Assembly: GCA_036172245.1 (NCBI GenBank)
Contig: JAYWIR010000026.1
Location: 992,001-1,056,000 of the forward strand
DNA length: 64,000 nt
From: Raillietiella orientalis
Lineage: Eukaryota
Direction of reading: 5' to 3'
The position numbers and the translations under genes were made by a program. Of this stretch, positions 3,095 to 64,000 are shown piece by piece; position 1 is the first letter of the stretch, and each line of letters starts with the position of its first letter. The notes under the pieces are model-generated. The model had not been told where the DNA came from. It did not search any database and worked only from the letters and a program-made list of their open reading frames with translations.

Positions 3095-3508
3095 ATTACA
3101 AAGTGTCGTATGACATGCGCTTGTTATAAGAGGGGATCACGTTTTGCCCTCTACCACCGAGTGCCAGTGTGGAGGAAGTGGAGGTACCCTTCTGAGCAAG
3201 CGGACAGCGAGGCAGCGGAGTGGAAACGTGACAGCAGCAGTTGTCTGCCGATACGGAGATGATAGCATCAGCGTCAGCAACAACCTCTCCAGGCAGCCTA
3301 GGCGGAAGAGACGGCATCGTTCTCAAGGACGTCGTAAGCAGCGGTAACAGTTTTTCACCCGCTCACGCAGAGTCCTTTCTTTACAAGAAATAAAGGAAGA
3401 TGAGAGCGCAGTTCCCGAAACAGAATCAAGAAAGGGTGCGGGGTAGGGGGGAAGCGGTTCTTCGGGAGGATCCACCGACACGCAGGAGCAGATGCAGCAA
3501 CCGCCTAG
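3095..3508 (+). pseudogene. Possible degenerate ORF1-like remnant at the array edge
   Basis: GC-rich, Cys/Gly-rich start followed by basic and acidic low-complexity peptide with in-frame stops; no diagnostic motif. Confidence 0.25.
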
Positions 3509-5635
3509 GCGCACGGACGTGCTCTCTGAGCGCTGCTGAGTGAGTTAGAAACTTTAAGTGTTGTGTGGTGGAAGCGGAGATCCTCTGGCAGCGATGCCTG
3601 AGGACACCGCGATGGAGTGCCAGGGGAGAGAACCCTCTTTCCCCCAGCAAATAGAGGTCAGAGCGTCCGCCTCGACCCAATCGTCCATCGCCCCAGGGAA
3701 GGTCTGGAAGGCCGTGGCTGCGGCCCTGTGGTGGGCAGCCATGGCTGAACACAAGGTCTACCTAGAGGTGGACTACAATCCAGTCCTCCTCTACAAGGTA
3801 GGCAATTTATATAATTCTGAGAGCGCGCGCACCTTCTCGAAGGCGATTCACGCTCAGGGTATCATGCAAGAGGAGCTTCTTGCAATGACCATTCGCAGCG
3901 GTGGTCAATACGTAAAGGCAAGCTTGGCGCAGCGACTTCTGCAGACCCCCGTTGCAATGGGAAACAGTAGGCTTCTCCCCATTACGATGGACCACTCGGT
4001 GGTGGTCTATCTTCTCGGAATAACGAGGCGGACGGCCAAAGAGGCTGTCCACACCGAATTATCCAAATACAGAACGGTTCACGCGCTGTGGCAGAAACCT
4101 TCTCCCTTCGTGGAGCACAGCGGACCCTCAGGAGGCCTAGCTGAGTCCGTCCCGATAACCGTCCACGAGGGCATAGGGTTGCCGCACGAATTACATGCCA
4201 CCGGGGAACCGGTCGACGTGTGGTACGTTGGGAAACCCAAGTACCGCAGACACTTCCACACTGAGGGACATCCAAAAAAAAAAAGTTCCCCCTAAATCAA
4301 GTGTGAGGTGCGCGCAGCAATGGGACACACACCGAAAGTGTGCCCCCAAACCCTCGCCCGCGTCGCGGCTGCGAAAGGCAGGAAGAAGCGCGAGGCGAGA
4401 AAAGCCAAACTCGCCGCGAAAAACGCGGAAAAAAGCATCGCAGAGAACGTTTCCCCAGCAACACCAGATGGGGCTACCTCAGACATCCCAGCGGAGCAAG
4501 CTGAAAACGTCGAGGAGGACGGCCAGGAGCCCGGATGGAAGCTGGCAAGAAACAAGAAAAAGCAAAAGAAGGAGAAAAAAGAAACAGGTCAAGCACAACT
4601 CTGCGAAGATAAGCCGAGGAGCGACACAATTAAAAACTGCCGTGTCATCCTTGAACGCGTCCCTGCGAACGAGGAAGCTCTGCCGCCGCCAGAGTGAAAC
4701 CTCGCGAGCAAAAGGAAGAGGGGAGCGAGGCGGTGGCGTCCGTCGCCGTTGTCGACGACGCAGATTACGCACGGGCGGCTGAGGAACTCGAAGTCACCCT
4801 GCGGGAAAATCAGAAGGCGACGAAGAAGGCCCTCCGGCGTCCCACATCCGCTAAACAATCCGAACCTTCGGATTAGGAAACGGAAGTGGGAAAGTCGTCT
4901 TTCATCCTGGCACCCTCGCGCAAGTCTGGGCGCAAGTCTAAGACCCTGAGAAGGCACATCTTCTCTGCCGACATGGAAGAGATGGCCTCCGACAGCGAGA
5001 GCGTAATGGGCTTCAGAACACGGGAATCCTCGCCAGAGAATATCCCACGTTGCGACGCCCAGGAAGGGATGGACGCGTTGGAGACGGTCCCAGAGCCAGA
5101 AGCGACCGTCCCTTCTGATAGTTTCCCGTCCACTGAAGTGGCAAGAGCCGCATTAGCGCTTTCCCAGCTTTGATGCTGAAAATTGCTCATGGCCTGTTGG
5201 GACATCAACGGGCTGCGCGACACGGCAGGGGACGAAACCCTGTGATCCTTCGATCTCGTACTCCCGCGAGAGATCCACGTGATCTCTGCAGAGCAGGCAC
5301 GGGAAATCGAGCGGGTAGCAGGTGGCCAGCTGTCGTGCCAATGCGGCTCTCGCCTGTCTATCGAAGTCGCCTTCCTCCTTCAGCCAGACATCGCGAGGGT
5401 TGCAAAGGGCGTGCTTCGACCAGGAAGGTCCTGTCGGCCAACTGACTCTCAGATGGTCTGACTCGATTGACCTCGTGGTCACCAATGTGTACGCCCCAAG
5501 CGGCTCAAGCAGAGCACGGGAACAAAGGACGTTCTTCGAAATCCTGAAACGCGATTGGCTAATGGTAGGAGGCGCGCAATAGGCGCATCTGATTGGCGGC
5601 GACTTCAATCTCCACTTCCATCCTCTGCTTGCTGA
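3509..5635 (+). mobile_element. Copy F (lineage 2): 5' end, frameshifted ORF1 and endonuclease up to GDFN
   Basis: GCACGGACGTG at 3511; MPEDTAM..YKVGNLY..WYVGKP; AAEELEV; TGATG at 5171; NVYAP; GGDFN at ~5595-5609. Confidence 0.85.
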
Positions 5636-5713
5636 GAGACGAACGTGAATTCGATTCGCTCCGTTTAGCCGCTGTTTGGTTGTGCTTGTGCGTACCACTG
5701 CCTAGTCCTGAGG

Positions 5714-6850
5714 ATGAGCAGTGTACAAGGCAACGTGGAAGTCGTCGAGCCATTGGCTCAGAAACTTCATGCAGCTGGCACGATGTCGGCAACTTCTGCG
5801 AGCCGAGCGCCACCGGCCAGGAGCTTCGCGGACGTGGCTGCATCTGCAGCCGTACAAGGGCGCCTCCCGGACCAGGCGGAGTTGCAGGCGTATGTAGCCC
5901 AGGGCTACAATCCTGCACTACGCTATAATGTAAGTGGGGTAGGATTAGCTGGGGAGGAGTTCGCGGACGAACTTTTCCGTGTGGGAGTGAGAGAGGAGGA
6001 CCTGTTAGCCCTCATGCCAGTTCCTGCATTGGGCCATGTGAAGGTCCGCTGTAAGCAGGCTGCCCTTGTGCAGCGGCTCCTCCGCACTCCCCTGTCCATC
6101 CTCGGGAAAAAAGTTTTTTCCACCGCGATGGACGAATCTTTTGTCGTTGTTCTTTCGGACGTCGAACCCGAGATCAACGACAGAAATCTGATTGACGCGT
6201 TGGCGAAATTCGCCACGGTTCTCGCGATGTGGAGGAAGGGAAGTACTTATAAGAAGTTTTCTTCCCTCCACACAGGATTTGCTGCGGTCAGGATAACCGC
6301 AACTAATCGCCGCACGCTGCCAGCAACGCTGCAGGTCAACGACACGGTCGTTCACCTGTGGTTCGTAGGCAAAGATCGCGCGTGCGAGCAATGTGGCAAG
6401 GAAGGGCATCGGAGGAAAGAATGCCCTTCCCGGAAGTGCCGCTATTTCAAGGAGTCCGTGCACGAAATCAGGAAGTGCCCGGACATTAAGAAAAAAAAGG
6501 AAGCTGCTAGACTCCGGAGCGTTAAAGAGTGCGCAGAGGAGAAAATAGCCTCTAAAAAGAAAGGCGCCTCGCGAAATCCCGCAAAAAAACAGAGCGGCAT
6601 CGTGGTCTCCCAGTCGGTTTCCTCTGCGTCAAACCCCCGAAAGGGCAATCACGCTGCAGGGAAGCTAATTAAGAAAGGGCGCGGGGGCTCCGCGCCAGCC
6701 GACACTGCTCCCGCTGCCCAAAGCGTAAATTCCGCTGTGGGAATGGGGTCAGGAAAGGCCGATCAACTGATCCAAAGCGTGAAAGTGGGTCAAGGGGTTC
6801 GCGATAACCTGCATCCACTATTCCGTTTTGCATTGCGGTGGCCTCAATGA
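5714..6850 (+). CDS. ORF1 (gag-like nucleic-acid-binding protein) of copy B, frameshifted at the C-terminus
   Basis: CX2CX4HX4C knuckle plus a degenerate second knuckle and a basic tail; homologous to 19037-20980. Confidence 0.8.
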   Translation: MSSVQGNVEVVEPLAQKLHAAGTMSATSASRAPPARSFADVAASAAVQGRLPDQAELQAYVAQGYNPALRYNVSGVGLAGEEFADELFRVGVREEDLLALMPVPALGHVKVRCKQAALVQRLLRTPLSILGKKVFSTAMDESFVVVLSDVEPEINDRNLIDALAKFATVLAMWRKGSTYKKFSSLHTGFAAVRITATNRRTLPATLQVNDTVVHLWFVGKDRACEQCGKEGHRRKECPSRKCRYFKESVHEIRKCPDIKKKKEAARLRSVKECAEEKIASKKKGASRNPAKKQSGIVVSQSVSSASNPRKGNHAAGKLIKKGRGGSAPADTAPAAQSVNSAVGMGSGKADQLIQSVKVGQGVRDNLHPLFRFALRWPQ

Positions 6851-7099
6851 CCGTTTCTCCGAAAAAGGCTGGATGCCTAGCGGCAAAAGCCGCGAAAAGC
6901 GGCGGCGCGTTGCTCGAAGACACCCCGCACCCGGAAGCATCCTCCCCAACGCGGCATTTTTCCCCAAGTCCCACGAGGGGTGGAGTAAATTTATTTTTCA
7001 AAAATTTTTCTATAAAAACATTCACACTACAATCTCATCCATACCATTAGCACTTTTTTTTACCACTATGAAGTCCTTGGGTTCTCACAAGTTCTGCAC

Positions 7100-9031
7100 T
7101 CATGGTGGGTTTCCTGCTGTTTGGTCCCGGGAGTCGTCTTCTATCCTCTTCAGGATGAATCGGTACGTCCAGGCTTGGATTTTCCCACAGTTTCTAATGC
7201 CGATTTCCCTCTTCAGGAGCCCTTGTAGGGTCTCCATCGGTGGTGCGGCTCTTCTGGCTTTCCTCATTTTCCACCACCGCACAAGTATGGCGGTGATGAA
7301 GAGGGCGATGGTCGTCCTCACCATGGGATTGTAACAGGGAACATTACCATCCCCTTGAAACATCCCGGCGAGGATCTCGTGGTCGATGGAGTCAAAAGCC
7401 TTCTCCATGTCAGTGAACAAAAGCACCAGGTTCTCGCCGACGTATCCACTGAGTCCAACAGTGGCCTGGGCACACTTGACATTCTCCGACATGTGTCGTC
7501 CTGGGACTGCACATGTCTGGACCGGAGAGATCAGCCTCGACATGACCTTGCCTAAGCGGTTGGACCAGATCTTCGCCAACCACTTGGCATCGGAGCTTAG
7601 GATCGAGATTGGCCTCCATTGGGCGATCTGGGTAGAGTCGCCTCCTTTCGGCAGCAATCTCATCCGACTCTCGTAGAAGGACTAAGGTAGTCTGCCTTCT
7701 TCCTGGATGCAGAGGGTCAACTGGTGGAACAAGCGCAGGTAGGCGTGCAGGTACCGCTGATAGTGCGTGATGGGTACACTGTCAGGGCCCGCTGCCACGT
7801 CCTTGCGAAGTTGCCCAAACGCAGTCTTCAACTCTTCTTCGGAGAACTCCTCCTCCAGTCTGTTCCGCTCAAGGTCGTCGGTCCTCTTCTCGAGATAGCT
7901 CAAGAAGGCCTGTTGACTAGAGCGACACAGATGTTGTCGCCTGAAGTGTTTCATGTGATGCCTGTGAAAGGCATCCACGATGTCCTCAGACGACTGTCGC
8001 TTTTGGCCGTCGTACTGGATGCAGAAGATATCTGTTGCCAGATTTCTCTTCTCTAGCACGCCGACTTCCCCTTTTATGTTATTGAGGACGTACCGACTCT
8101 CGTACTGATCGAAGTACTTTGAGAGGGAGCGATCTTGGATGTTCAGCTCCCGGTACGCCTCTTGCCTCAAGCGCCTATCCCCGAACTGCATGTTCGCAAA
8201 CAGGTGTATCCTGTGTTTCAGGCTGTCCCAGTCGGCGACTCTTCGGATTGTTGTTGCCCTCAGAATCGCCTCCAGGACAGCCTGATGTCCAGGATGTGTC
8301 TCGAACCAGTCGGGCATGCTGATGAGCGCCGCCCTGGTGCCTTGCCTCCGCCGAGGATTCTCCGTTCTTAGGGAAAACCGCACCAGGGGGTGATCGGACA
8401 CCGTAGTCATAGTGTCGCGAAACCCCTGGATGCGGTTCCCAAGTTCGGTGCTGTGCAGGACGTGATCGATTGGCTTGTGGCTTGCTGTTCGCCAGACCAG
8501 TCCGAACTCCTCGGATAGCCGTCGATACGCCGTCCTTCCTCTGGCGTCTTCCGAATGAATGATCTCATCCAAAATGTTGAGATCGCCAGCAACAATCACG
8601 ACGTCCTTGGGGGCGACCTTTTGCCGGAGTGTTGCATGCAGCGCCTCCGCACAACGATGTTTTAGCCTGTGCGGCCCGTACACGTTCACCAGGATAAGGT
8701 GAACAGTTGCGGACCAGGCTAGTCGCACGCCGATGATTCGTCCGGGTTGTGGACAGAACACTTCCAGAATAGTGGGGGCTAAGTGGTTCTTTATTAGCAC
8801 CGCCACACCCTTCGTGTTCCGTTCTCCTTCGCTGACGAACATCTGCCCGTTGAATCGCCGTTCCATTCGCTGGCTGATCTCGAGACCCATCCTGTGGGTC
8901 TCCTGCAGGCACACGATGTCTTGTTGTGCGATGGTCCGCACAATCCTTCTTCTTTTTCCCTGGTCGACCACACCGTTTACGTTCCAGGAGGCGATGTTCA
9001 GCCTCCTGGCAGTCGATAGGGAAGAGGTCAT
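7100..9031 (-). pseudogene. ORF2 of copy X (APE + partial RT, internal stop at 7682, deleted)
   Basis: APE motifs, AAGPDS, WRPISILSSDAK, DMEKAFD; YADD region missing. Confidence 0.85.
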
Positions 9032-9632
9032 AAAAGGGGAAGACCTATTTCTTGGCCTTCCTGAGCTTCTTCTGTCTGGGAGAGCGTGCTCTTCCAGACG
9101 TCGAAGAAGCAGCGGGCTTCTCGCTGCCGGCGTCACTCTCCGTACCTGTGAGGTCGGTAATTTCCGCCTCCTCCGTAGAGTGTTCCGCCTGCGCGATCAA
9201 TTTTCGAGATAGCGCCTCTATCTCGACCTTGGCGCAGAAGTTCGCCTTCACGTCGGGAAGCTGTTCCTCTAACTTCTCGCGTTCAGCGACCTCCACCACC
9301 TGGTTGATGTTCTCTTGTGCAGTGCAGATCTTCTGCAAGATTTTCTCTTGCTGAGGACCGCTCTGCACCTCCATGATCTCCTCCGCCAGTGTTGCCAACT
9401 CCTCCGTGGTCTGCAGAGCCTCCTGCGACACTTTAGTGGCTTCCTGTCTCTCTTCCTTCGCGCCTTCCTGCGCTGCCTCCATCTTCTCGCCTTCCTGCTC
9501 TGCTGCTTCCAGGATTTGAGGAGTTCCTTGCTCCTTGACGAGCATCCTCCTCTTTTTCTTCTTTCCCACTTCTATGAAGCCGTCCGCCGACACCGGGACG
9601 GCTTCTTTCACCTTCTTCGGCCTTCCTGCCTT

Positions 9633-10916
9633 CTAAGGCTGTTCGGCCTCCTTGATGTTTCTCTCTCTCACGGGAGAGAGACCGCGAATCCTTCTGCAGT
9701 TTTCAAACTCCGGACAGCTCCATTTCGCATGTCCGTGTTTCTTGCAGAAGGAGCACACCTCCGGCTGCGGGCAGTTTCGAACTTGATATCCTACTTTGCC
9801 GCAGCGAAAGCGGCGGCAAGTTGGGCAAGCGCCGGCCCTGTGGCCGAAGTGCTTGCACCCGGTGCAGAATACCGGTTGTTGCCGGTAACGCACATTCACT
9901 CCCTGGGATTGTTCGTCAATAACGGCCAATCCAGGGATCACCGCTCCCTCCCTCAACTTCATCTTGGCGATCATGTCGCCAGAAAATTTGTTTCCAGAGA
10001 AGTTCTGGAAATCGAGGTCCAGAACTTCCCCAAACTGCTCCAAGTAATTCCACACCGCTAGTTGCGGTGTGAGGATGGAGATGCCGTTTAGAAAGACGGT
10101 TGTGTATGGCATCTCGCCAATACCACAAACCATCCGTCCTTGTATATTGATCCCCTTCTGGATCAATCGCTCTCTAATGTTTTCACAGTCTGTAAAGACT
10201 GTTAACCCGTTGTTCGATGGAATGATCGCCTGAATGCGATCAAAGTCTATGTCCGTCTTGTCGAGGGACAAATAGACCTCCCTGATTTTATTAAATTTTA
10301 TTAGCCCGGTCTTGAAGATAATGGGCTTCACGTTGGGGCCTATTTCGACTATTGGTCGGTCCACTTTTAGAACTTTTCCGCTAAGCGGCTTACCAAATTT
10401 CCTAGGTGGGTGGACACTCGCCTGTCCAGCCGCCACCGACGCATAAGAAAAGGGCTGCGACGCCGCAGCCGAACCAGATGGCGTCGCTCCCTGCACCGCG
10501 TGAACGCCCGCGGGTCCCGCCTGGGACGCCGCCGCCGCGGGCGCAAACCTCGACGTCACCGCCGCGGGCGGCACCCTCGGCATCGCCGCCGCAGGAGCGA
10601 CCTTCCCCGCCGCGAGCACGACCTCCGCCGTCGTCGCCGCGGGCACGACCCTTGGCATCGCCGCCGCCGGCGCAGCAAAGCCCGCCGCGGGCGCGATCCT
10701 CGGCATGCCTCTCGCAACCTCGCCGTTGCCGCACGTTACCTCCATGGCTTCCATGGGGGACGATGGCCTCACCACTCCTCCAACTCCAGATGCCTGCATC
10801 CTGGCAGCTGTTCCGGCTGCTCGGGACGACTGCAGGATTTCCACCGTGGAATTCTCGGCGCTGCTGCTGCTGATGATGATGGTCCCGGGTTGCACTCTTT
10901 CCACACTGGCGTTCAC
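9633..10916 (-). CDS. ORF1 of copy X (three CCHC knuckles, Ala/Pro repeats)
   Basis: CTGCKHFGHRAGAC, CGKVGYQVRNC, CSFCKKHGHAKWSC. Confidence 0.85.
   Translation of the reverse strand: MNASVERVQPGTIIISSSSAENSTVEILQSSRAAGTAARMQASGVGGVVRPSSPMEAMEVTCGNGEVARGMPRIAPAAGFAAPAAAMPRVVPAATTAEVVLAAGKVAPAAAMPRVPPAAVTSRFAPAAAASQAGPAGVHAVQGATPSGSAAASQPFSYASVAAGQASVHPPRKFGKPLSGKVLKVDRPIVEIGPNVKPIIFKTGLIKFNKIREVYLSLDKTDIDFDRIQAIIPSNNGLTVFTDCENIRERLIQKGINIQGRMVCGIGEMPYTTVFLNGISILTPQLAVWNYLEQFGEVLDLDFQNFSGNKFSGDMIAKMKLREGAVIPGLAVIDEQSQGVNVRYRQQPVFCTGCKHFGHRAGACPTCRRFRCGKVGYQVRNCPQPEVCSFCKKHGHAKWSCPEFENCRRIRGLSPVRERNIKEAEQP
10525..10715 (-). repeat. Degenerate GC-rich coding repeats in X ORF1 (MPRxxPAA units)
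   Basis: MPRIAPAA, MPRVVPAA, MPRVPPAA, SRFAPAAA. Confidence 0.6.
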
Positions 10917-13900
10917 TCAAACACTTGCCCTCTCAGGGCACTCAAAAATTGCCTTGGCAGTGGTTTTAAACACTGCCTTGGCGGGGTATTGGGTATAGTT
11001 TTAAACTAGCAATAATCACGCCTCCCTTTCGTTCAGCGGCGGCGATACCGCCCGTGCGCAAGGCTCTCGCGATCGCTAAAGGAGTTGCTTAAGCCTGCGT
11101 GGAGGCAGCACTTCAAGAGGCAGCCAAGGCAACGCCTCTTACATCCGTGGGAGCAGCGCCATCTCAGGATGGCAAAGATAACTGCGACGCGAAGGAAGAC
11201 GGCTGGATGCAGGCGAGAAAGATCATTCGAAAGAAACCATCAAGGTCTTCGCAGCTCTGTGTGAAGGTGAGTGGGCGAAAGAAACCCGCGAAACCTTCCC
11301 AGAAAAAGATTGCGATTCTTTCCTCCTGCGCAATCGTCCTCTCGCGGCTGGAGCGGGAAGCTGCTGCTGCGGCTAAGAGGACGAAAGTCCCAGGCGCAGT
11401 TGCAGAAAGCGCTAGGAAACAGGCAGCGAACGATCTCCCTAATTCCGGGAAACAGCAGCAGTGCCTGGCAAGCGCTCGACTGTCGGATTCCGATCCAGAG
11501 TCCGACAGAAAGAGCACACAGCGCGACAACCGCCCGAAACCGCGCAATCGCCTCCCGAAGATCCGCAAGCGCGTGGTTGCCGAGGAGAAACTGTTGTTGG
11601 AGAGCAAAGAGGAGGAAAAGGACCTCACCTCTGAGCTATCGGCAACAAGCAGTGCGGCTTCGAATGGAGATGTCCAGTCTCCGAGATCGACCGCTCTGTC
11701 TCGTGACGACTCGCCGGACAAGGCGAGAAATCTGTTCTCACCTTCCCAGCCTTAATGCAGGAAATCGTCTCTTTCCGTCGATACAGCGTAGCCTGTTGGA
11801 ACGTCAATGGGCTGCGCAGGGACGGAAAGAGGCGCGACGTGTCAGACACCCTGCGACATTTCGATTTGGCGATCCTTCAGGAGATGCATTACATCTCCGA
11901 TGAGGAGGTTGCCGAAATCGAACAGCGCGCGGGTGGCACCCTGTACTGGCGAGAAGGTTTTGCACAATCGTGCGGAGTCGGGTTTCTCGTTAATAGTAGG
12001 ATGGCGGGAGCAGTGCGCAGCGTTCGATTCGACAAGGAAGGCAGAAGAGGCCAACTTGTACTCAAGTGATCAGATTCAATCGACCTCGTCGTAACGAACG
12101 TCTACGCGCCGAGCGGCTTTCATCGGCGTGTCGAAAGAATCGAGTTCTTCGACGTGCTGAAGAGCCAATGGCTCAGAAACTCCGGAGCCAGAGTGGCGCA
12201 TCTCGTCGCAGGGAACTTCAACGTCCACCTGCTTTCCAACGAGACCCGATCCCTGGCGGAACGGTCGCGGGTGGAAGAAGCATGCGCGTTGGTGCACGCG
12301 TGTAACTTGGAAGCCGGCGAGCCTGGACTGGAAAGGAACGTGGATCACCTCTACCTCGATGAACACCTACTCTCGCGAGTGGGAAGGAGAGGCAGGGTGC
12401 CGTCCACGTTATCGGACCATGATAGGCTGGAGTTCGAGCTACTCCCGCCTGGCAAGGGACCTCCAAACAACGTTTAAATTATGCCGGCGGATTGGCTGAG
12501 TCACCCGGAAGCGGCGAAGCATCTTCGCCAGTTCCTTTGCGGCTCTGCCATCCGGGAACTCGCAGACTGGGACCATCTTAAAAGATCGGTTCGCGAGTTT
12601 TGCGACCGGTTCCCCCTGCAACTGCTACCACGCGGCTTCGGGGAAGGCGTGGCCAATAGCAGAGCATTTCTGCAGGCGTGCACCTTCTCGAGACGTGCGG
12701 AAGTCCGGCAACTCGCAGAGTACAAGGCGAGGGCCGAGCGCCAGGTCTGGCAGTCTGGAGCGGCTATTCTGCTCGACGACCAAGGCCGGGAATGCACGGC
12801 TCCTGCCGAAGTGCGGCGAGCACTAAAGCGTCACTTCTCCTCGCTCTACGCTAATTCCCCGACGGAAAGAGTCCTCTCCGAACTACTTTTGCCGCGGGCT
12901 GCACATGGCATCGGCGAGGAGGAACGCGATCGTCTCGACGAGCCCTTCACGTTGGAGGAAGTTTCTTCCGCCATCGCAGGACTCAAGAGACGGGAGACGC
13001 CAGGTGAGGACGGACTGCCCGCGGAGTTCTATCAGAGCTTCGCGGCGGAACTCGCCCCACTGGTTCCTAGAATCTCGACGCTGATGAGGGTGACGGGCGA
13101 TGTCCCTTCTTCCTTCCGCTCAGAAAGGGTGCGTCTCCTTCCGAAAGGAGGGGATCTGCGCCAACTCAACAAATGGCGTCCGATCACATTAGTGAATAAG
13201 GACGTCAAGTTGTTTTCGAAGCTGTGGGTCACGCGCTTAGGGAAAGTCGCGGAGTCCCTGGTAAGCCCGGAGCAGTCTTACGCTGTACCGGGTAGATCAA
13301 TGGATGCGAACCTTCTTTTCGCGCGCACCTGGTGGCAGCTCCAAGAGCGCGTTGCAGCGGATAGCCGAACAGCGGCAAGACCTTCTGCCGACTGCGTGCG
13401 CCAGTGCGAACGGACGGAAGAAAGGCCGGGAGCCTTGACACCAGCAGTAGATTTGCACAAAGCATTCGATTTTCACCCGGATTTCGCCGGGGCGTTTATT
13501 ATAAAACAAACATCTACAAAGACGTGCAGTGGCTGGACCATTGCTCCAGCCACGCACGAAGAAACACAGAGCCTGCCGGGTCACCGGTTTGCAGACCGGT
13601 ACGGTCCACCACGGCAGCAGGGGGAAGGGGGAAAAACAAAAAACAAAACAAAAAAGAAGAGAAAAGTTGGGAGGGTAAGGGAAGGGATCACAGTTGCTGG
13701 TGGGGCCGTTGCATCCTTTGCAGGATGCCGGCAAGCTCCTTCTGTATTTCTGAATCCAGGTGGGGCCATCGGGACGCCCTCCTCTGGAACTGGAAGGCTG
13801 GCTGGATGGCACCCTGGTCGCGTTGTCCTCTCTAGGCCTTGCCCCAAGCGGTGACGATCCCGCGTAGGCAGCACAAAGCTGCTAACGAGGCCGCTGGCCG

Positions 13901-15120
13901 AAGGGCGTCGGCAACGAAGAAGACTTTCAGTGCGTCCCTGGGGTTGCGGCAGGGGATTCCGATGGCCGCGGCAAAGCGAAACCAAAGGGGCCGAAGGGCA
14001 ACACAATTGACTAGCAGGTGGGGGAGGGACTCCCGTTCCCCACACCTGACGCAATTGGGGTCCACCGCTCCCCAGGTCCAGTGGTGTCGGCGGGCGTTGC
14101 AGTGAAGTCCCCAGTGCTGCAACAGGAGAGCCGACTCCTGCCATTTTAAGGGGAGGGCGGAAGTGTTCATGAGCACCGGGGGCCACTTCAGATGTTCAAT
14201 GGGAACATCGAGCAGCGCGCCCCAACGCAGAAGTCCATTGGGAGGCGTACTCGGGGTCGCAGCGTCTGTTAACTGGCCCGTCTTCCACTCTCCTATCTTC
14301 TTCTCCTTTCCGGAGATTGTTACTGTAACCACCCACTTCGCCGCAACATCGCTGTCCAGATCTTCCATCAGGGAGGGCAGCGCAGCAGCGAGGGCGGTTC
14401 TTCCTGCCCACGCTCTCTTCTTTGGATCCTCCAGGATCTCGCGAAGCGTGCAACTTCTGTAACCCCCAAACAGGAACCTTCGTTCCTGTTGGGAGCGTTG
14501 CATGCCGAACTGTCCCCACGTTCGAACGGTTTCCTGTAACCAGGCACTACCGTTAAACGGGCGACAGGTGAGCAATCCTGGGTTTTTCCGATACAGCGCA
14601 GCCACCCTCCTTAGCTGGAGTCCGCATCGGTTGACGCGGCGACGGAGTGCAAGAAACGACGTCAGTCCCGTCTTGCCGGTGGCTTGCTGGAGAAGGATAC
14701 GTGCAGGGACGCACCAACAGGTGCACCACAACTCTGGAACGAGTGCCGACAATCGGAACTGGAGCTGAAGCTCCAGCCACTCCAGCATCAGGAGGCCCAG
14801 ACCACCATCCCGACGAGGAGCGCACAAGTCCTTTAAGCGGACTCGGGCCCTCCCGTTGCCCCAAAGGGCGATACGGAGGAGGTCCTTTGTCCGCTTTTTA
14901 ATTCTCTCTGTAAGGGGGCAAACGAAAAGCAGGGGGCGGAGGAGAGGAGCCGCGAACGTGTTCCAAACCGCGGCCCGTTAAGGCAGGAAAAACCTGCCGC
15001 CTCGGAACGGGCCGATCGCCGTCTCTACTTTTTATAGGCAGCCGGACCACGCTTCCGCAGGGGAGTAGTCCCCCAACGGCACATCAAGGTACTTGAAGTA
15101 CCTCACCGTGAGCATCCCCA

Positions 15121-18100: not shown

Positions 18101-18216
18101 CAACATTCTTGTTCAGTCGTCGGTTGGGAGTTTGGTTCCCAACTGGTTTATTTTGTATAATTGCTTTTTTTGGTTATGTTATATGGAATAAACGCCCCTG
18201 CGTGACCGGGTGTGAA
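15121..18216 (+). mobile_element. Copy M (lineage 1): lacks the 5' half, has an intact RT-to-3'-end half
   Basis: 902-codon open frame, pyrimidine-rich 3' UTR, AATAAA plus hairpin at 18187-18212. Confidence 0.92.
15155..17863 (+). CDS. ORF2 fragment: non-LTR reverse transcriptase + C-terminal CCHC, no endonuclease
   Basis: KAPGEDG, DLHKAFD, RQGDSLSPLLF, YADD, RYLG, CLRCGEIEFFPHLLLDC; longest open frame in the window. Confidence 0.93.
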   Translation: MHQLPRGFGEGVANSRDFLQARSFSRRVDVGRLSEYKAKAERQVWQSGETVLLDDQDRECSAPADVRRIVRRYYSSLYAEAPTERSLSRLLLPIDAPVVDEEKRARLDEPSTAEEISSAISGLKRRKAPGEDGLPAEFFQCFAAELIPLVLQLSSLMRDSGDVPALFRSAKVRLLPKGGDLRQLNNWRRITLVNSDVKLFSKLWVARMGRIAESLVSPQQTYAVPGRSMDANLLFIRTWLQLQHRLAVDRRAEATPSISHRRRRGTQRETPRALAAAVDLHKAFDCVNQKLLLELLERLGLPASLLAYLRSYWRHAITSIVFSGCRVYGVPVRRGIRQGDSLSPLLFSFYFELVLEAYRLTLANLPSSCPGMPAVAAYADDLLLLLPRATPATSLEDFFELIRRGAGVSVNRSKCMVVPVGATWEGQSDWIDLRIPTGRYLRYLGVPLGDFCISEAWSDCLRKAERALGPFSGGEFVLPERACIWNNFVASLLRPLFFFPPPQEVKVWAQRLLRKALWGAARSRVGLKDLMAPRQDAGLGILDLNSIELQVQFRMLRLCAKLWCTPWCLPARLILRRCTGSEGLLSLLPHFRHTRIGFGFPLRQLSSLLEAQSWISCRPMNINAWRQEFLSSWAASKGTRLEDLRRLRLLLSHQMDEVMQDKKLSDRLAATPLAAALPALRASNDGCLPAEWEFSCKIAGFSKLLGSWTTKELVQAVTPRNRAKGLLRWSEHLSVPPEVIVVPRVCLDSSVFPLKWKQDVLLFLHCALHCNRQRSIVSEGAALPNCLRCGEIEFFPHLLLDCGDLRELWRRLTSAIMSQRGTAIDVLRRFFSRNGLSVGAIVATMCCVRAIVKARYALELSAQRREAHLLAAQFMEKASSWSRLRDKVNEDITGIHRRFTHL

Positions 18217-25027: not shown

Positions 25028-25031
25028 GAGT

Positions 25032-25038
25032 GGACGTG
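25032..25038 (+). promoter_or_regulatory. DPE-like GGACGTG at the element 5' end, type example
   Basis: Same or variant 7-mer at 3515, 5641, 18958, 50385 (+) and 11023, 33222, 40309, 41741, 56270, 63982 (-); matches the RGWCGTG downstream promoter element known from Drosophila jockey-type LINEs. Confidence 0.65.
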
Positions 25039-41752: not shown

Positions 41753-41768
41753 CGTAAAGCTTTCGATT

Positions 41769-55100: not shown

Positions 55101-56276
55101 CAGGAAAGCGCTTGATGACGACAGAGCAGCGCTTGATATTTTCGCCACGCGCCAAAATCTCACTGCGTTTCGCGACATTTTTTTTTTTTGCTTCCTTGAG
55201 GCTTTTCTGCTTCTTGGATTTTCCTACCTGCCATTCAGGTTCATGGCCGTTCTCGACCTTGTCCGAGTTTTCCAAGATGTCGGAGCTGAGCTTCACCTGG
55301 GGCACGATAGTTGTTTTTGAGCGGCGGTTCTCTCTCGGGCTGCCTGAACTCGTCTTTTTCTCGCCGCGCGCTTCTTCGCATTCCGTGCGGACTCGACGCA
55401 GACTTCATTTTGCGGGCACACTGGAAGTGTGTGCCCGGGTTGCTTGCATTGCTTGCATTGCAATTAAGGCACCTTTTTTTCAGGTGACCTGAAGTGCTGC
55501 AATCCCCGCAGAAATGCGGCTTACCGACACACCAGATGTCAACGGGTTCGCTGTTGACCTCCAGCTTGTTAGGTACGGAGCAACCCTCGCGGACCATGAT
55601 GCGCGCGGAAGCCATACCGCAATTCAGGAGATCGTACTCCCAAAACGAAGTCGGCCTTTTCCACAACGCGTGGACAGTTCCAAATTTAACTAGTTCCTTT
55701 CGGACAGCCTCTTCGGCCATCCGGAAGGTGATTCCGAGGAGGTGGATTACGATAGATCTATCCTCCGTGATGGGGAGGAGCCAACGATTCCCTAAAGGAA
55801 CAGGTGTACGGAGCAGACGCTGGGCAAGACTTGCTTCTTTGCAATTCACCTCAACGTACTGTCCACCACTCCTGATGGTCATCGCCAAGAGCTCCTCCTG
55901 TGGTACTTTGAGGGATTGCATCGCTTTCGAGAAAGCGCGTGCACTCTCAAAGGAGTAAAGGTTGCCTACTTTGTAGAGTAGACAGGGATTGTACCCCTTC
56001 TCCAGGTAGGCTTTTAACTCAGCCGCAGCCGCTTGTGTTGGCGCGGCAGTCATGGAAATCCAGCTTCTCCCTAGCGAGGGGTCCCTTCTGTGGGGGCGGA
56101 TGCCCCCACATCCATTGATTCAGGAGGCGACATAGACGTCGCCCCCTCCTCAACATTGGTGATGGTCCCAGGCATTGCTGCCTAGCCACCACCGAATCCA
56201 CTGGCACACCAAGAAAAAAAAGAAAGAAAATTAAACCACAAACGCTCAAGAGCGAAACAAAAACCCGTCCGCTCTC
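46120..56276 (-). mobile_element. Copy K (lineage 2): full-length but degraded, 46120-50379 and 55001-56276, split by A3
   Basis: 5' GGACGGG 56270-56264; ORF1 56053-55241; APE 49900-49200; RT with YADD ~47940; hairpin 46125-46150. Confidence 0.87.
50380..55000 (+). mobile_element. Copy A3 (lineage 1): both termini, ~1.2 kb internal deletion, antisense in ORF1 of K
   Basis: 5' UTR matches A1; deletion at ~51741; RT frame 52539-54281 with YADD; hairpin 54971-54995; candidate TSD AC(A/G)ACGG 50373-50379 / 55001-55007. Confidence 0.9.
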
Positions 56277-59200
56277 GCTCTTGGACTTGGACGATCTGAA
56301 AAGATCGGTCCGCAAGTTCTGCTGCCAAATCTTCTTGCGCCTGCTTCCTCGTGGCTCCGGGGAAGGCGTCGCCAACAGCAGAGAGTTTCTGCAGGCCCGG
56401 CAATTCTCCCGATGTCTGGACGTCCGGTACCTTGCGGAGTACAAGGCCAAGGCCGAGCGCCAGGTCTGGCAGTCAGGAGCGGCTTGTCTGCTCGACGACC
56501 AGGGCCTGGAGTGCTTGGGCGCGGCCGACGTGCGCCGCCTCCTAAAGCCCTACTACTCCTCGTTGTATGCTAGGGAGCCGACGGAACGCAGTCTCTCGGA
56601 GGTGCTTCTGCCGGCGGATTCCCCTGCGCTCGACGAGGAGGAACGCGCCACTCTTGACTTGCCCTTCACGGCAGAAGAAGTGTCTTCCGCCATAGCAAAC
56701 CTCAAGAAGCGCAAGGCGCCAGGTGAGGATGGTCTGCCTGCGGAGTTCTTCCAGTGCTTCGCGGCGGAACTCATCCCCTTGGTGCTGAGGCTTTCAGCGC
56801 TGATGCGAGAGACGGGCAATGTACCGGCCTCGTTTCGCTCAGCAAGGGTGCGTCTCTTGCTGAAACGCGGAGACATGCGCCATTTAAGCAACTGGCGTCC
56901 CATCACCTTGGTGAATGCGGACGTCAAGTTTTTCTCCAGGATCTGGGTCGCGCGCCTAGGCAGGATCGCTGGATCCGTGGTAAGTCCGGAGCATCTTACG
57001 CTGTTCTCGGGCGGTCCATGGAGGCGAACCTGTTCTTCGCGCGCACGTGGCTTGAGCTGCAAGCTTGCGTGGCGCACGACAGCCACGCCACCGCATCTGC
57101 GGCTGCCCAGGCTAGGCGTCGCTGCATTCGGTCTGTGGAAGAGCCGGGTGCCTTGGCGGTCGCAATCGATCTCCGCAAAACGTTCAAGTTTCACCCGGAT
57201 TTTCAAGGGGTGTTTATTACAAAATTAACATCTACAAAGACGTGCAGTGGCTCGACCAGTGCTCCAGCCACGCACGAAGAAACACAGAGCCTCCCAAGTC
57301 ACCCTACCCAGGTCCAGTGGTGTCTGCGAGAGTTGCATGGGAGTCCCCAGTGCTGCAACAGAAATGCCGACTCCTGCCATTCAAAGGGGAGGGTGTAGGT
57401 GTTTATTTGTACCGGGGACCAATTAAAACGTTTGATGGGAACGTCGAGCAGCGCGCCCCAGCGAAGAAGTCCATGCGTAGGCGTACTCGGGGTGGTAGCG
57501 TCAGTCAGCTGACCCGTCTTCCACTCCTCTCTTCTTCTCCTTTCCAGAGATTCTAACTGTAACCTCCCACTTCGCCGCAACATCACTGTTTACATCTTCC
57601 ATCAGGAAGGGCAGAGCAGCAGCGAGTATGGTTCTTCCTGCCCACGCTCTCTTCCTTGGATCCTTTAGGATCTCGCGGAGCGTGCAATTTCTGTAACCCC
57701 CAAACAGGAACCTTCGTTCCTGTTGCGAGCGTTGCATGCCGAACTGTCCCCACGTTCGAACGGTTTCCCGCAACCAGGCACTTCCGTTTAAAGAGCGACA
57801 AGTGACCAATCCTGGGTTTTTCCGGTACAGCGCAGCCACCCTCCGTAGCTGGGATCCGCATCGGTTGACGCGGCGACGGAGTGCAAGAAACGACGTCAGA
57901 CTGGTCTTGCCGGTGGCTTGCTGGAGAGTGAGACGTGCAGGGACGCACCAACAGGTACACCACAACTCTGGAACAAGTGTCGACAATCGGAACTGGAGCT
58001 GAAGCTCCAGCCTCTCTAGCGTCAGGAGACCCAGACCACCGTCCCGACGAGGAGCGCACAAGTCCTTTAAGTGGACTCGGGCACTACCGGTGCCCCAAAG
58101 GACGATACTTTAAAGGTTCTTTGTCCGCTTTTTAATTCTCTCTGTGGGGGAACAAACAAAAAGCAGGGGGCGGAGGAGAGGAGCCGCGAACGTGTTCCAA
58201 ACCGCGGCCTGTTCAGGCAGGAAAAACCTGCCGCCTCGGAACGGGCCGATCGCCGTCTCTACTTTTTGGAGGCAGCAGGACCACGCTTCCGCAGGGGAGT
58301 AGTTTCCCAACGGCACACCAAGGTACTTGAAGTACCTCACCGTGGGGATCTTCAAACGAACCCATTCCTGCTGCCCTGCCCACGCCGCACCAACTGGCAT
58401 CACGGACGACTTCGCCCTGTTAACCGTAAGTCCGGTTCCCCGATGCAGCAGGTCGTAGAACTCCTCGACCGCCGAAGCCCGGGTGGACATAGGGAGCAGC
58501 AGCAGAAGGTAGTTCGCGTACGCTGAAACAGCCGGCGTACCGGCACAGTCGTGCGGCAGGTGCGCCAGAGTTCCCCTGTACGCTCTCAGTACCAACTCAA
58601 AGTACGTACTGAAGAGCAAGGGGCTCAGGCTGTCTTTCTGCCGGATCCCACGCCACACCGGCATGCCGTGCACGGTCTGCCCGCTGAAAGTAACATTGAT
58701 GAGCGCGACGCGCCAGCAGGAGCGCAAATAGGCCTCTAATTAGGCCGGAAAGCCCAAGCGTTCCAGAACTCAAGAAGGAGATTCTCGTCGACGCAATCGA
58801 ATGCTGTCTGCGAGTCGAATGCGACCGCAAGGGCTCCCTCCCCCACCCGACCACCCAACTTCTTGCCGGCGCACGCACCGGAATTCCGGCTGCGCTTCAA
58901 GCTCCTCTCATTTTGGAGCTCTAGCCAGGTGGAAGCGTGGAACAGGCTCTCCTGCATGCTTCGCCCGGGAACAAAATATGTCTGTTCCGGGCTGATGAGG
59001 ATGTTTGCAACCCGTCCCAGACGCTCTGCCCAAACCTTAGCCAGCAACTTAGCGTCCGCATTTACTATTGTGTTTGAACGCCAGTTGTTCATGCTCCGCA
59101 GATCTCCTCCCTTAGGGAGGAGCCGTACCTTTGCCGAACGAAACGAGGCGCTAACTTCACCGCTCTGGCGTATCAGCATGGTGAGTTTCTGAACCAGGGG

Positions 59201-60036
59201 GGTAAGCTTAATCGCGAAAGTTTGGAAGAACTCCGCGGGCAGGCCGTTCTCCTCTGGAGGTTTGAGTCTCTTGAGCTTTCCGATGGTCGAGAGGATCTCG
59301 TCCTTCGTGAAGGGCTCGTCGAGAGTCTTTATGTCCTCCTCCTTGTTTGGTGGAGAGCTTTTCAGAAGCAGGAGTCGTAAGACGTTCCTCTCCAGAGGTG
59401 CCATGGCATACAGGGAGGAATAGTATCTCCGCATCAGGCCGCGAATTTGGACAAGTACCGAGTGCTCCTTGTCCTGATCGTCCACCAAGCTGGCCGATCC
59501 GCACTGACAGGCTTGCCTCTCGGCTCCCGCTTTGTATTCCGCCTGCCTGCGGATGTCGGAGGTCCTAACGTAACGACGGGCCCGCGGATAGGCTCGTTCG
59601 TTACGGACCGCGGTTCCAAAACCCGTAGGTAGGCGGTGCAGAGGGAACTGATGGCAGAACTCCTGGACCGACCGCTTGATGCGGTCCCAATTCTGGAGTG
59701 TCCGCAGCCTGAAGCTCCGTATGAACGTGCGGAGATGTTACGCCGCGTCCGGGCGCTCCAGCCAGTCCCCTGGGAGACGCCACGCTGTCAAGGGGGGGCT
59801 TCTGTTGCGCGGATGGATCTCGAGAACTAGCGGGCGATGGTCGGATAGCTCTCACGGTAACTTGCCGCGCCTGCCCACGCGAGGGCACAGGTGCTCGTCA
59901 AGAAACACGTGGTCAATGCTGTCTTCGATCCTCGGTGCACTGGCCAACAAATTACAGGTGTGCACCGCCATGCACACCTCGTTGACAAGGTCACGCTCGG
60001 GATTCTGCCCATGTGGTTTCAGGCCAACGTTGAAAT

Positions 60037-61748
60037 TTTTCACCCGGTCATGCCGGGACGTTTATTTACATAAACGAGCTGGAAACAATTGTTTTTAGCT
60101 CTCGACTCTGAAAACATGCAGCGGAGATTCACTCCTGGCACGCAGGCCAGGAAAACGGAAGAACATGGACGACTGAGGGAAGTCCAAAAAAAAAAAAATT
60201 GTAAATGGGAGGAGTGGGCCAGGGAACTTTGTTGTTGCTCCGCACTCATTGGGAAACTCAAAAGTTCTAGCACAAAAAGGACTCGGGAACGTATGGGGAA
60301 AAGGACGCGAAAACAAAAAAAAACAATCAAAAATAAAATGAGGGCGGATCACCGATTTCGTTGTTCTAAGCCGTTGCTGATCCGGTGATGGATACCGGTT
60401 AGCTCCTCCGTTGTGTCTTCATATAAGTGTCGTTACTCAGCTGCCGACCTCATGAAGTCAGCTGCCTTCTTGGTGACACAACATTGCTGTCCAATATTCT
60501 CCAGCACGTCTCGGACCGTGACGATGGCGCGGATGCAACCAACTGTGGAAATCGTCGCAGCCATCGAAAGTCCTTGTGTCTGGAAGAACCGTCGCAGCAC
60601 TTCTCGAGCGGTGTCTCCTGGTGACGGGAGAGCTGCTGCTAGCCTCCTCCACAGTTCCTGGAGGGCTCCGCAGTCCATAACAAGGTGCGGGAGCGACTCC
60701 TTCGCTCCGCACCGGGCACAGTAGGGAGAAGTCACCCCACCGGAAACTCGGTGGCGCCGCTCGTTGTGGCGCAATCCCCAGTGCAAGAAAAGCGAAACGT
60801 CTTGCTTCCATGCAAGGGGAAACACCGAACCGTCCAAACACCAGGGAGGGACTATAAGTTCTTCGGTGGCAACACCAAGAACTTCTCTTCACCGAAGAAA
60901 CCCCTTTGGTGTAGCACGAGGAGTGGCGGCATCCGCAAGCTCGCTCGTGGTCCATTCGTTAACTGGTTTTGTTCTTCCTGCAGTGGTGCAGGAGAACTCC
61001 CACCTTGCAGGCTGGCTACTGTCATTTTGAGCCTCGAGGGCAGACAGTGCTTCGGCAAGGGGGGTGGCGGTCAAAGAGGAAAGCTTCACTTCGTCCTGCA
61101 TGACATCTTGGAGTGACCAAGGCTGGAATCGACGATGGGGGCGAAGATCTTTACGGCTCATTTCTAAGAATGCAGCCCACGAATCAATGGATTCCTGCAT
61201 CCAAGCATTATAGTTCATTGGTCGGCAGGTAATCCACGTACTGGCTTCCAATAGGGTGGCGATTTTCCTTGAAGGATAGCCAAGTCCCTGTTTCCTGTGG
61301 CGCAAGCCAGGCACCAAAGAAAGTAATCCTTCACTGCCTGCACACCTTTTCAAAAGGCTGCGCGCAGGCGCACACAGGGGCGAAGTCCATAGCTCGGCAA
61401 AAAGTACGAGCATCTGGAACTGCACTTGCAGTCCGATTCGCTCCATAGTCAGGATACGCAAACCAGCATCCCGACGCGGAGCAAGCAAATCTGTAAGGCG
61501 GATCCTGGATCTCGCCGGACCCCAGAGAGCGTTTCTAAGCAGGAGTTTTGCCTGCTCTTTGGCCGCACAGGGGAAGTTCAAGACAAAAAAGAGGAATCGG
61601 AGGAGGGGGGCCACGAAGGTGCTGCAAATAGCCGCCCGTTCCGGCAAGGTGAACTTGCTGTTAATGAACGGGCTGGCAACCAACTCGGCCTTATGAAGGC
61701 AGTCCGACCACGCCTCGGCAGCACCGAGGTCGCCCAACGGAACGAAAA
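60037..61748 (-). mobile_element. Copy L (lineage 1): 5'-truncated insertion with an 11-bp target-site duplication
   Basis: AACGTTGAAAT at 60026-60036 and 61749-61759; APRRDAG, CARCGAKESLPHLVMDC; hairpin 60041-60066. Confidence 0.93.
60041..60066 (-). terminator. Conserved 3'-end signal (AATAAA + hairpin), type example; eight further copies listed in findings
   Basis: Element strand AATAAA-CGT-CCCGG-CATGA-CCGGG-TG-AAAAA. Confidence 0.85.
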
Positions 61749-64000
61749 AACGTTGAAATCACCGAACCACATGGGCATTCCGCACGCCTTCTCTGGTCAG
61801 CCAGTCGCGCCGGAGAGCAAGGAAAAACACTTTCCTCCCCCTCCTATTCATCAGGTCCGCGCCAATCGGTGAGTACACGTTCGTGACGATCAGATCGATC
61901 GAGTCGGACCACCTGAAAGTCAGCTGGCCGACAGGACAGTGATCGTCGAACCGCACGCTCCAAGCCGCGGCCTCGACTGCTGGCCGAAGCAGGTAGGCGA
62001 CACCGCAACTTTTCGGTTTCCCACACCTATACCATAGCCGCCATCCGGAGAACCGTTCGATCTTTTGCGCTTGTTCTGCACAGATCACGTGGATCTCCTG
62101 CAGCAGCGCAAGGTCGTAGGACTCCAGAAGAACGGCCATGTCTCGTCTCCTGCCGGCGTCTGTCATGCCGTTCACGTTCCAAACGACGATGCGCAGACGA
62201 CGGCGGGAGGAGATTCCCGGCATTACTGCTGGGAAGATTAAGGTGTGGGGTAGCCCACCTCTTGCGAGGCAGGCATGATATCCATGGGGGTTTCGGCCTT
62301 CTCAGGAACCAGAGGCACCTGTTCGGCCTCCACCTCCTCCATCCCCTCCGTGTCCGCGCGTGGGAGTCTCTCGGGCGATGGGTCCCGAGAGTTTCCCACG
62401 CTGATGGCACCCTTGCTTGCGGAAGCCATTTCTTCCCCCTCGACGGGGGAGACGAGCTTCCTCCGCTTTCTGAACTTACGTCCAGACTTCCTGCGGGGTG
62501 CCGTGGAGACGGAGGCTGCATTTCCGGCCTCCACCTCGGGGTCGGAAGTGGGGGACTCCTGAGGGGAGGCCGGACGCCTTACGGCCTTCTTGCCAGCCTT
62601 GGAGGGTTCTGGCTGCAACGAGGCTGCCAGCTCCTCCGCGGCTCGCGCGAAGGCTACGTCATCGATGGTGGTGTCGATGACGGACGCCGCCGCCGGCTCG
62701 CTCCCCTCGCTGTTGACATAGTCAACAGAGGGGAGGTCGTCGGTAGCGGCAAGTTCTTTCTGGCAGCGTTCGGCAACATGGAGAACGCGTTCGACGACGA
62801 CGCTGCACTCTTTAATTATCGCGCTACCCTGCTCTTTCTTCTTTTGTTGGTAGGCGATTTTTTTTTCCATCCTCCTCTCCTTCTTTGATTTTTTTGCCGT
62901 TGCCACTTGCCACCCAATCTCCTGGCCGGCTTTCTCAACTTTTTCGGCGTTGGTCGCCGGAATCTCGGGTGCTGCCTGGGTCTTGGGAACGGGTGGCACA
63001 GTCTTCGCGGCAGCTTTCGCCGCCAGACTTTTCTGCAGAAGCCGGGCGCGTTTTTAAAGGTTTCTCTTGGAAACCACTCGCACTGCTGCTTTTGAGCACC
63101 CCTCCTTCGTGTGACCCATTGTGCCGCATACTTGGCACTGCACGTTGGGACACCTCTTTTTGAGGTGGCCCGACGTATTGCAGAAGCCACATTATTTCGG
63201 CTTCCCCACATACCAGAGTTCGACGGTTTCGCCTTCGGCCTCCAGATTGTAATGAAGAGTGCAGCCCTCCCAAAAGGTCACGCGCGCAGCCGTGAAGCCG
63301 TGTTGTAGCCCCGTGTAGTCCTCGAAAGGACCAACTTTCGTCCACTGCGGGTGGACCGTTCCAAACTGTTCCAAAGCGGCGCGAACCAGTTCTTTGCGCA
63401 TTCGCGCGGTCACGCCTAACAGGTGGACCACCATGCTGCGGTCCGCCGTAGTGGAGAGAAGCCTGCGCGTCTCCATCACAACGGAGGTTTTAAGCAGTCG
63501 TTGGGCCAGCTCTGCATGTTTGCAGATGACCTCAACGTACTGACCCCCGCTGCGGAAGGTCATAGCGCTGAGCTCCTCCTCTTTCACATCGAGAGCGCGC
63601 ATGCCCTTCGAGAAGGCGCGCGCGCTCTCTAAAGAATATAAATTGCCTACCTTGTAGAGCAATGAGGGGTTGTACCCCTCCTCTACATAGCCCGACAATT
63701 CCGCCGCGGCTGCAGGCGATGGCGCCGACACAACGGCGCTCCACGCCCGCGCTGCAGCGGGGACCGATTCCGTGGGGGCGGATGCCCCCACCTCCATCGC
63801 CTCTGGGGGCGACGTTGCCGCCGCCCTCTGGCTCTCTATCGCCTCTGGGGGCGGCGTTGCCGCTGCCCCCTGGCCATCCCTGGTGGTCGCGTCAGGCATC
63901 GCTGCCTGATCGACCACCGAACCACACGACGCTTGCACTGGGGAAGACTTCCTGGCACGAGGAGCACCGAGAAAACACGTCCACCCTGGAGCGCACAAGG

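Follow-up and report, generated by a model that had tools for sequence, protein, structure and literature searches.

We describe a stretch of 64,000 nt from the genome of Raillietiella orientalis (contig JAYWIR010000026.1, positions 992,001 to 1,056,000, forward strand; hereafter the window), most of which is a nested and partly scrambled array of long interspersed nuclear elements (LINEs). Judging from the junctions between these elements, it is likely that at least three of the lineages home, in antisense orientation, to a precise site of their own within the coding sequence of sister lineages. Three lineages, which we call Y, A and C, are each found inserted in place twice at one exact host position, and always antisense to the host. 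All counts given here come from this one window.

The array extends from 3356 to 64000 and consists of about 15 diverged lineages of one LINE group encoding an apurinic/apyrimidinic-type (APE) endonuclease (EN) and a reverse transcriptase (RT). About 25 segments carrying open reading frame (ORF) 1, EN and RT sequence were mapped on both strands by tblastn, using one ORF1, one EN-RT piece and one RT C-terminal piece of the window itself as queries. They are numbered S1 to S25 below, and positions within an element are given as R, the coordinate of the complete 5614-nt copy S14 (34696–40309, minus). Self-similarity or homology to ORF1/ORF2 covers 88.5% of the bases in 3356–64000, the uncovered bases being untranslated regions (UTRs) or variable ORF1 tails within mapped elements, except for 6851–7345. 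No Pfam domain of another transposable element class was found in the 21 ORFs overlapping the coverage gaps. The initial annotation had described more than 60 kb made of some 12 families of one clade; the LINE-only Pfam content bears this out, but the lineages number about 15, and about 0.75 kb (3095–3355 and 6851–7345) is not attributed to elements.

Matches to PF03372 (E values 3e-17 to 2e-11) are followed in the same frames by matches to PF00078 (9e-25 to 4e-19), which is the ORF2 layout of an APE-type LINE. Among them, the long ORFs of the GC-rich part carry Exo_endo_phos, RVT_1 and zf-CCHC matches (the last at 22.2 bits above the cutoff in one ORF1 and slightly under it in two others) as well as weak zf-RVT matches (20–25 bits; cutoff 27.5). 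By these domains, rather than by an RT phylogeny, the elements are classed as APE-type LINEs of the L1/Tx1 kind. The closest protein in a large collection, 58% identical, is an unnamed metagenome protein; the best named matches are L1-like proteins of plants, frogs and fungi at 22–28% identity, none being above 28%. A metagenome scan with the ORF2 part of S7 returned 79 loci, all distant, with best long matches of 20–28% and none informative on the junctions.

The shared terminal signals from which the initial annotation had located the element ends are real. In full-length copies the first letters are GGACGTG, and a homologous 5' UTR comes next. The number of GGACGTG matches is not significant by itself (14 versus 8.7 expected); six of the 14 are true starts (3515, 18958, 25032, 33222, 40309 and 63982), and three further 5' starts are diverged versions of the motif. 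At the other terminus, ten fixed 3' ends consist of AATAAA and a terminal stem-loop, (C/U)G(C/U)CC-loop-GGGTG; nine show AATAAA..CCGGGTG and one, at 54995, is a variant. The stem-loop is kept in all ten copies, with changes that are mostly one-sided and compatible with G-U pairing. It is followed by 0–5 A or by TGAA, and long poly(A) is absent. The two TGAA ends, at 18213–18216 (S7) and 43941–43944 (S16), belong to unrelated lineages. Hallmarks of target-primed reverse transcription are thus present: fixed 3' ends, 5' truncations (S6, S7, S16, S24) and an 11-bp target duplication around S24. Several 5' junctions vary by 11–23 extra nucleotides, as in S20 (50363–50385), the interrupted element X (56271–56283) and S15 (41742–41755). 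Since the extra nucleotides of S20 match another insertion site at 21 of 23 positions, this suggests that transcription began upstream, in the previous host (5' transduction).

The site of lineage Y lies in the RT, directly after the codons for KAFD. Both in-place Y 3' ends (2/2) adjoin plus-strand hosts at the identical position R3552, in antisense: in S5 the host reads ...AVDLHKAFD, followed by tail and stem-loop (13469/13473), and in S22 it reads ...AIDLRKTFK, again followed by tail and stem-loop (57188/57191), with tails of three to four A at both junctions. Of the three to four KAFD junctions proposed initially, these two (13473 and 57191) stand. The break of S4 at 7345 (to 7366) was not counted; it lies 25–45 nt past KAFD and adjoins unattributed DNA. 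At 41741–41770 there is only a remnant: the 5' end of S15, a Y-like copy, lies 14 nt from a 15-nt stretch coding for KAFDC at 41756. This 15-mer (41756–41770) lies 78 nt upstream of the true KAFD of S16, which it repeats (within 41756–41848); a target duplication, filler or the remnant of another host would each account for it. In the target copy that lineage Y itself carries (58790–58830, minus), the motif is TAFD (ACAGCATTCGAT) and the codons upstream of it are changed, which sets it apart from the occupied hosts. On this single observation, lineage Y may avoid its own site.

Lineage C is found at a PxGFG stretch. The 3' end of S14 adjoins S13 after ...LPAGFGVV at R2724 (34695), and the full 5' end of its sister S11 adjoins S10 at LAKGFGG... 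at R2701 (25031), so that both PxGFG junctions of the initial annotation hold. The multiple alignment shows an overlap of about 23 nt between these host ends, as would be expected for one site with a staggered cut of roughly 23 bp. Lineage A is found at a VVVE stretch in the tail of ORF1, where the host sequence ...CCCGCAC precedes both S9 and S12, each with a full 5' end that begins with GGACGTG (18957 and 33222/33223). Both junctions fall in the same column of S25, an uninterrupted Y copy (window position 62808). A third A copy, S20 (50385), had been assigned to this motif as well (then written xVxVE), but it interrupts its host X about 120–130 bp away in S25 coordinates, with a duplication of at most 3 bp. 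The 23 nt upstream of S20 match the VVVE flank of S25 at 21 of 23 positions, and nowhere else in the window is there a match of 18/23 or better. The simplest reading is that the S20 RNA probably began in the flank of a parent copy seated at VVVE, which would make a third occupied site and one off-target landing.

Two further junctions lie at the GDFN motif of EN, and here both inserts have the same orientation as their host. S24 lies within a Y element (S25 and S23), has an A4 tail and is flanked by 11 duplicated bp of target, ATTTCAACGTT (60036/61749), and S3 starts directly after the GDFNLHF of S2 (5618). The relation of the two inserts to each other is not comparable. The internal break of S20 at 51740 is no GDFN junction, since it lies about 48 nt past that motif and marks the loss of 1.17 kb at an AGC microhomology. 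The initial proposal that each family has its own site is supported for Y, A and C, with two independent events each, but over-reaches for the remaining roughly 10 lineages, which show single events.

The recurrent junctions are independent events and not segmental duplicates, because the hosts are far more diverged than the inserts, and a duplicated junction would diverge equally on both sides. At KAFD the inserts are 88.4% (99/112) and 89.4% (944/1056) alike, the hosts 71.3% (427/599) and 72.8% (654/898). At VVVE the inserts are 95.3% alike (2933/3077) and the hosts 77.8% (568/730); S8 is 92.6% like S25, S13 only 77.4%. The PxGFG inserts are 84.9% alike (4026/4742), their hosts belong to unrelated lineages, and opposite insert ends are seen. 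We further placed 14 insertion events uniformly on a 5.6-kb element in 200,000 permutation trials, a null model that ignores base preference and works with small numbers. Three same-lineage pairs lie within 25 nt of each other (P=5.5e-5 under random placement), two if S12 and S15 are dropped (P=2.7e-4), and two coincidences among all pairs are exact to the base (P=7.5e-5).

Several observations weigh against precise homing. S20 landed 120–130 bp off the VVVE site, many KAFD sites stand unoccupied (eight are listed), and hosts at a shared site are only about 60–70% alike in the nearby bases, so that recognition may rest on few bases. There are only two in-place events per lineage, all within one 64-kb window. 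Both matching flanks are kept in only 3 of about 14 insertions, and each insertion with mismatched flanks calls for an extra deletion or recombination event. Just one junction is bridged by a public contig: contig 17868–18246 crosses 18212 by 34 nt and possibly stems from the same sample.

Some of these points would also fit a loose preference for a few bases (A-rich or 'AAC'-like) that are rare in LINE DNA of 60% GC, combined with regional targeting or retention, for example by centromere chromatin. Repeated use of the same codons would then be a mere side effect, and the regional component would explain why the array is so pure. The flanks past the 3' ends begin A-rich or RAAC-like at most of the 10 junctions, the hosts at shared sites are as weakly conserved as stated, one A copy landed near VVVE rather than at it, and the eight KAFD sites stayed empty. 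Centromere-directed nested transposon clusters are known for other elements, according to a 2026 centromere atlas preprint and to the work on Zepp/ZeppL. However, the coincidences are lineage-specific: 3 of 5 same-lineage pairs lie within 25 nt, versus 3 of 86 other pairs, two of which involve the Y-like S15. Moreover, three lineages use three sites though most hosts carry all of them, and two sites agree to the base. We therefore regard a loose preference as unlikely.

One might also suppose that each recurrent junction arose once and was then multiplied in the array by segmental or inverted duplication. This reading, whose segmental form the initial annotation had already named, appears very improbable. 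It is true that 18217–22037 aligns as one block to 33966–30145 at 91% (BLAST), and that arrays of this kind rearrange, as many mismatched flanks witness. Once it is divided at the junction, however, this block shows 95.3% identity between its insert parts and 77.8% between its host parts, the KAFD pair shows 71–73% for hosts against 88–89% for inserts where equal divergence would be expected, and the PxGFG pair presents opposite insert ends in unrelated hosts. Chimeric assembly of repeats is just as hard to credit: the region is highly repetitive and public contigs are short, mostly ending at repeat borders, but the junctions join true termini (stem-loop and A tail, or GGACGTG) to non-homologous internal positions where misassembly joins homologous sequence in register, one of them bears the 11-bp target duplication, and 18212 is spanned by an independent contig.

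The public contigs on 12500–32400 are 95–99% alike to the window; apart from the bridging one they stop at 15121 or diverge from the window at 18217 and 29833, which is consistent with uninterrupted sister copies elsewhere. One sequence-data run, seemingly of DNA, shares 26% of the window's words; none of RNA was listed.

The segments of the window are as follows (window coordinates, strand, content).

1–3094, minus: flanking AT-rich DNA with exon-like ORFs, outside the array (GC 0.35)
3095–3355, no strand: GC-rich stretch receiving the S1 3' end, without homology to elements or Pfam
3356–3514, minus: S1, 3'-terminal fragment with stem-loop (3381–3356) and A5 tail
3515–5618, plus: S2, GGACGTG 5' start, ORF1, EN as far as GDFNLHF
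5619–6850, plus: S3, probable 5' UTR and ORF1 (CCHC knuckle) of another lineage, starting just past GDFN of S2
6851–7345, no strand: unattributed 0.5 kb
7346–11053, minus: S4, distant lineage, 5' end at about 11053, ORF1, EN, RT broken 25–45 nt past KAFD
11054–13469, plus: S5, ORF1 tail, EN, RT to KAFD; hosts the Y copy S6
13470–15121, minus: S6, lineage Y, 3' stem-loop and A4 tail, 5'-truncated at R3968
15122–18216, plus: S7, 5'-truncated (R2660), open 913-aa ORF2 part, 3' end at 18212 plus TGAA
18217–18957, minus: S8, lineage Y, from EN start back to VVVE of ORF1, 92.6% to S25
18958–22041, plus: S9, lineage A, complete 5' end, ORF1 and EN, interrupted at R2893 by S10
22042–25031, minus: S10, 3' end to PxGFG (R2701); hosts the C copy S11
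25032–29832, plus: S11, lineage C, full 5' end to a break at R4775
29833–33222, minus: S12, lineage A, R3201 back to the full 5' end
33223–34695, plus: S13, separate lineage (77% to Y), VVVE of ORF1 to PxGFG; hosts S12 and S14
34696–40309, minus: S14, lineage C, complete 5614-nt element
40310–41741, minus: S15, Y-like lineage (78% to S25), ORF1 to 5' end
41742–41800, plus: 14 extra nt, then the KAFDC-coding remnant (41756–41770), beside the S15 5' end
41801–43944, plus: S16, RT beginning shortly before its own KAFD (41834), on to the 3' end at 43940, plus TGAA
43945–46119, plus: S17/18, left part of host H, ORF1 (CCHC) and EN to about R2644
46120–50362, minus: 3' part of X, A5 tail, stem-loop, ORF2, ORF1 tail
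50363–50385, plus: 23 nt that agree with the S25 flank of the VVVE site (21/23), probable 5' transduction by S20
50386–54995, plus: S20, lineage A, from the 5' end through to the 3' stem-loop, less 1.17 kb deleted internally at 51740
54996–56283, minus: 5' part of X, ORF1, 5' end (GGACGGG) and 13 extra nt
56284–57188, plus: S22, right part of host H, R2642 to KAFD
57189–60036, minus: S23, lineage Y, A3 tail, stem-loop, ORF2 to GDFN, target-duplication copy 60026–60036
60037–61748, minus: S24, insert in the Y element, 5'-truncated, with A4 tail, stem-loop and the C-terminal part of RT
61749–63982, minus: S25, lineage Y, target-duplication copy 61749–61759, EN start, ORF1, full 5' end

Clean nesting is seen three times: S24 lies in S25/S23 with its target duplication, X (46120–56283) lies between S18 (about R2644) and S22 (R2642) without a duplication, and S20 lies within ORF1 of X. 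In the other insertions one partner flank (5' or 3') belongs to a different element, as for S6 between S5 (R3552) and S7 (R2660) or S14 between S13 and S15; S11 and S12 are joined at the internal positions R4775 and R3201. S6 and S8 belong to the lineage of S23/S25 and enclose S7, with about 2 kb of host missing. Because partner flanks mismatch and this host sequence is missing around S7, insertion-linked target deletions or recombination between copies must have occurred. For 11054–43944 we found no single consistent nesting history without deletions or recombination. Deletion or recombination has had as large a part as insertion in shaping the array, a point that the initial annotation left aside.

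Two other candidate sites did not hold. The start of S7 (R2660) as a second use of the site of X (R2642) was rejected: the two are 17 nt apart and the neighbour is a Y copy, so that the proximity is chance or unexplained. The start of S5 as a VVVE-type site for S4 was dropped with no alignable homology. The 18 nt to the right of S25 (63983–64000), considered as a possible continuation of host H about 29 nt past KAFD, match it only locally (10/11), and four 14/18 matches elsewhere are just as good. Two 5'-truncated copies of different lineages, S6 (15121, R3968) and S24 (61748, about R3988), start within about 20–27 nt of each other just before VPLGD, either by chance or at an RT pause site. 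A single open frame of 746 codons on the minus strand (38745–40985) links the ORF1 tail of S15, across the S14 5' UTR, with the ORF1 of S14, and such an insertion could yield a fusion translation.

The array has 60% GC, compared with 35–42% across 1–4000; the step lies at about 3100, and from there to the window end GC is 54–65%, versus 0.35 in the flank (1–3094). This sharp jump, from 35% in flanking DNA to about 60% in the elements, is upheld across lineages only 65–75% alike, and element composition is far removed from that of the surrounding genome; the contrast raises the question how the elements maintain it. The unattributed 6851–7345, flanked by the stop codon of the S3 ORF1 and by the interrupted RT of S4, has an AT-rich core at about 6990–7060 and is unlike the elements. 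In the AT-rich 1–3094 there are exon-like ORFs on the minus strand (829–1275, 505–807 and 1254–1553, within 64–1735). Homology searches with 829–1275 returned no homologue and no Pfam family. The translation ...ELENEVCCKP / KLCELLGFNQLDLISQILAHR (64–1735, minus) recalls what we take to be the N-terminal part of a Brr2/ASCC3-type helicase; no Pfam match or homologue bore that out.

As a mechanism for precise homing we propose that lineages Y, A and C integrate by target-primed reverse transcription, in antisense, inside the coding regions of sister lineages. For Y, the host sense strand would be nicked directly behind the RT codons for KAFD, and this nick would prime reverse transcription on the stem-loop RNA; for C, a staggered cut of roughly 23 bp would be made in the PxGFG stretch between EN and RT; and for A the site would be the VVVE stretch in the ORF1 tail. 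As biochemical work has established for Tx1L and R1Bm, the endonuclease of each lineage, possibly together with other DNA contacts of ORF2 or ORF1, would recognise its site. The EN domains are 45–60% alike and have a variable stretch after GDFN; nothing in the alignment predicts specificity, and the variable stretch fits the model without proving it. A self-growing array, as put forward in the initial annotation, is plausible: with conserved LINE codons as targets, each further copy would bring new targets with it and the array would feed itself. Most partner flanks would have been lost to later insertions, to target deletions linked to insertion and to recombination between copies.

If the proposal is true, APE-endonuclease specificity has diversified rapidly inside one clade, which would be useful for engineering site-directed insertion, element competes directly against element, and there is a simple route for LINE-only chromosomal blocks to arise and keep growing beside intact genes. 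More tentatively, and with well under an even chance of being right, the array might be a closed LINE ecosystem, in which the endonucleases have evolved so that lineages parasitise and disable rivals by antisense homing into conserved catalytic or structural codons (KAFD of the RT active site, GDFN of the endonuclease, PxGFG and the ORF1 tail), each successful family becomes a habitat, host genes remain untouched, and escape may come from a change in a lineage's own site, as with TAFD in Y. On that reading, a self-feeding block could also be of use to the host as a chromosomal landmark, for example as a centromere or a source of small RNA.

So far, LINEs with a specific target are known for multicopy genes of the host, for telomeres and for a single DNA transposon. 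Target-specific families abound in three LINE groups, of which the Tx1 clade is one (PMC4640811). Exact junctions shared between copies, by which such LINEs are recognised, are found here for 2/2 3' ends of Y, 2/3 5' ends of A, and one 3' and one 5' end of C. One close precedent is Tx1L of Xenopus laevis, a Tx1-clade element that targets a single sequence within the DNA transposon Tx1D and whose endonuclease nicks this target specifically (PMC1950540). Like Tx1L, the elements described here are APE-endonuclease LINEs with a precise target inside another mobile element; unlike it, a single LINE with a single DNA-transposon target, they are several sister lineages with different antisense sites in coding motifs, within a LINE-only array. 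Sequence-specific APE endonucleases have a further precedent in R1Bm (PMC1919474; PMC4640811). R1, R2, Keno, Utopia and TRAS/SART, LINEs specific for rDNA, snRNA or telomere repeats, likewise have multicopy targets. Their 3' junctions are precise and their 5' junctions variable (PMC4640811). The targets of these elements, in contrast, are host multicopy genes or repeats and not the coding sequence of other LINE families. In Drosophila, HeT-A, TART and TAHRE attach head-to-tail at chromosome ends and are not known to use internal endonuclease-defined sites in each other's ORFs. As a small guild of related LINEs building a LINE-only array onto each other they resemble our array (PMC5537684).

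Zepp, an L1-clade LINE already known to nest into its own copies, and ZeppL, also of the L1 clade, are GC-rich and occur almost exclusively in LINE-only clusters of nested copies in green algae (Chlorella/Coccomyxa, Chlamydomonas), with GC above that of the genome, as in the present case. In the descriptions we could consult, these clusters comprise one or two families, mostly as tandem 3' ends, one per chromosome at putative centromeres. Our array, unlike them, contains about 15 lineages below 80% identity, in both orientations and with several full-length 5' ends, and it shows exact lineage-specific sites, where the same descriptions give no precise coding-motif site per family. Since the closest named proteins are 28% identical or less, the elements are not close relatives of Zepp. 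For several LINE families homing into each other's coding motifs we found no description in the literature searched, which did not include the original Zepp papers (1997, 2003), where a site preference may be reported. In conclusion, self-nesting of Zepp and homing of Tx1L into Tx1D were already known; what would be new here, as judged from a single window, is a group of sister lineages that probably have sites of their own.

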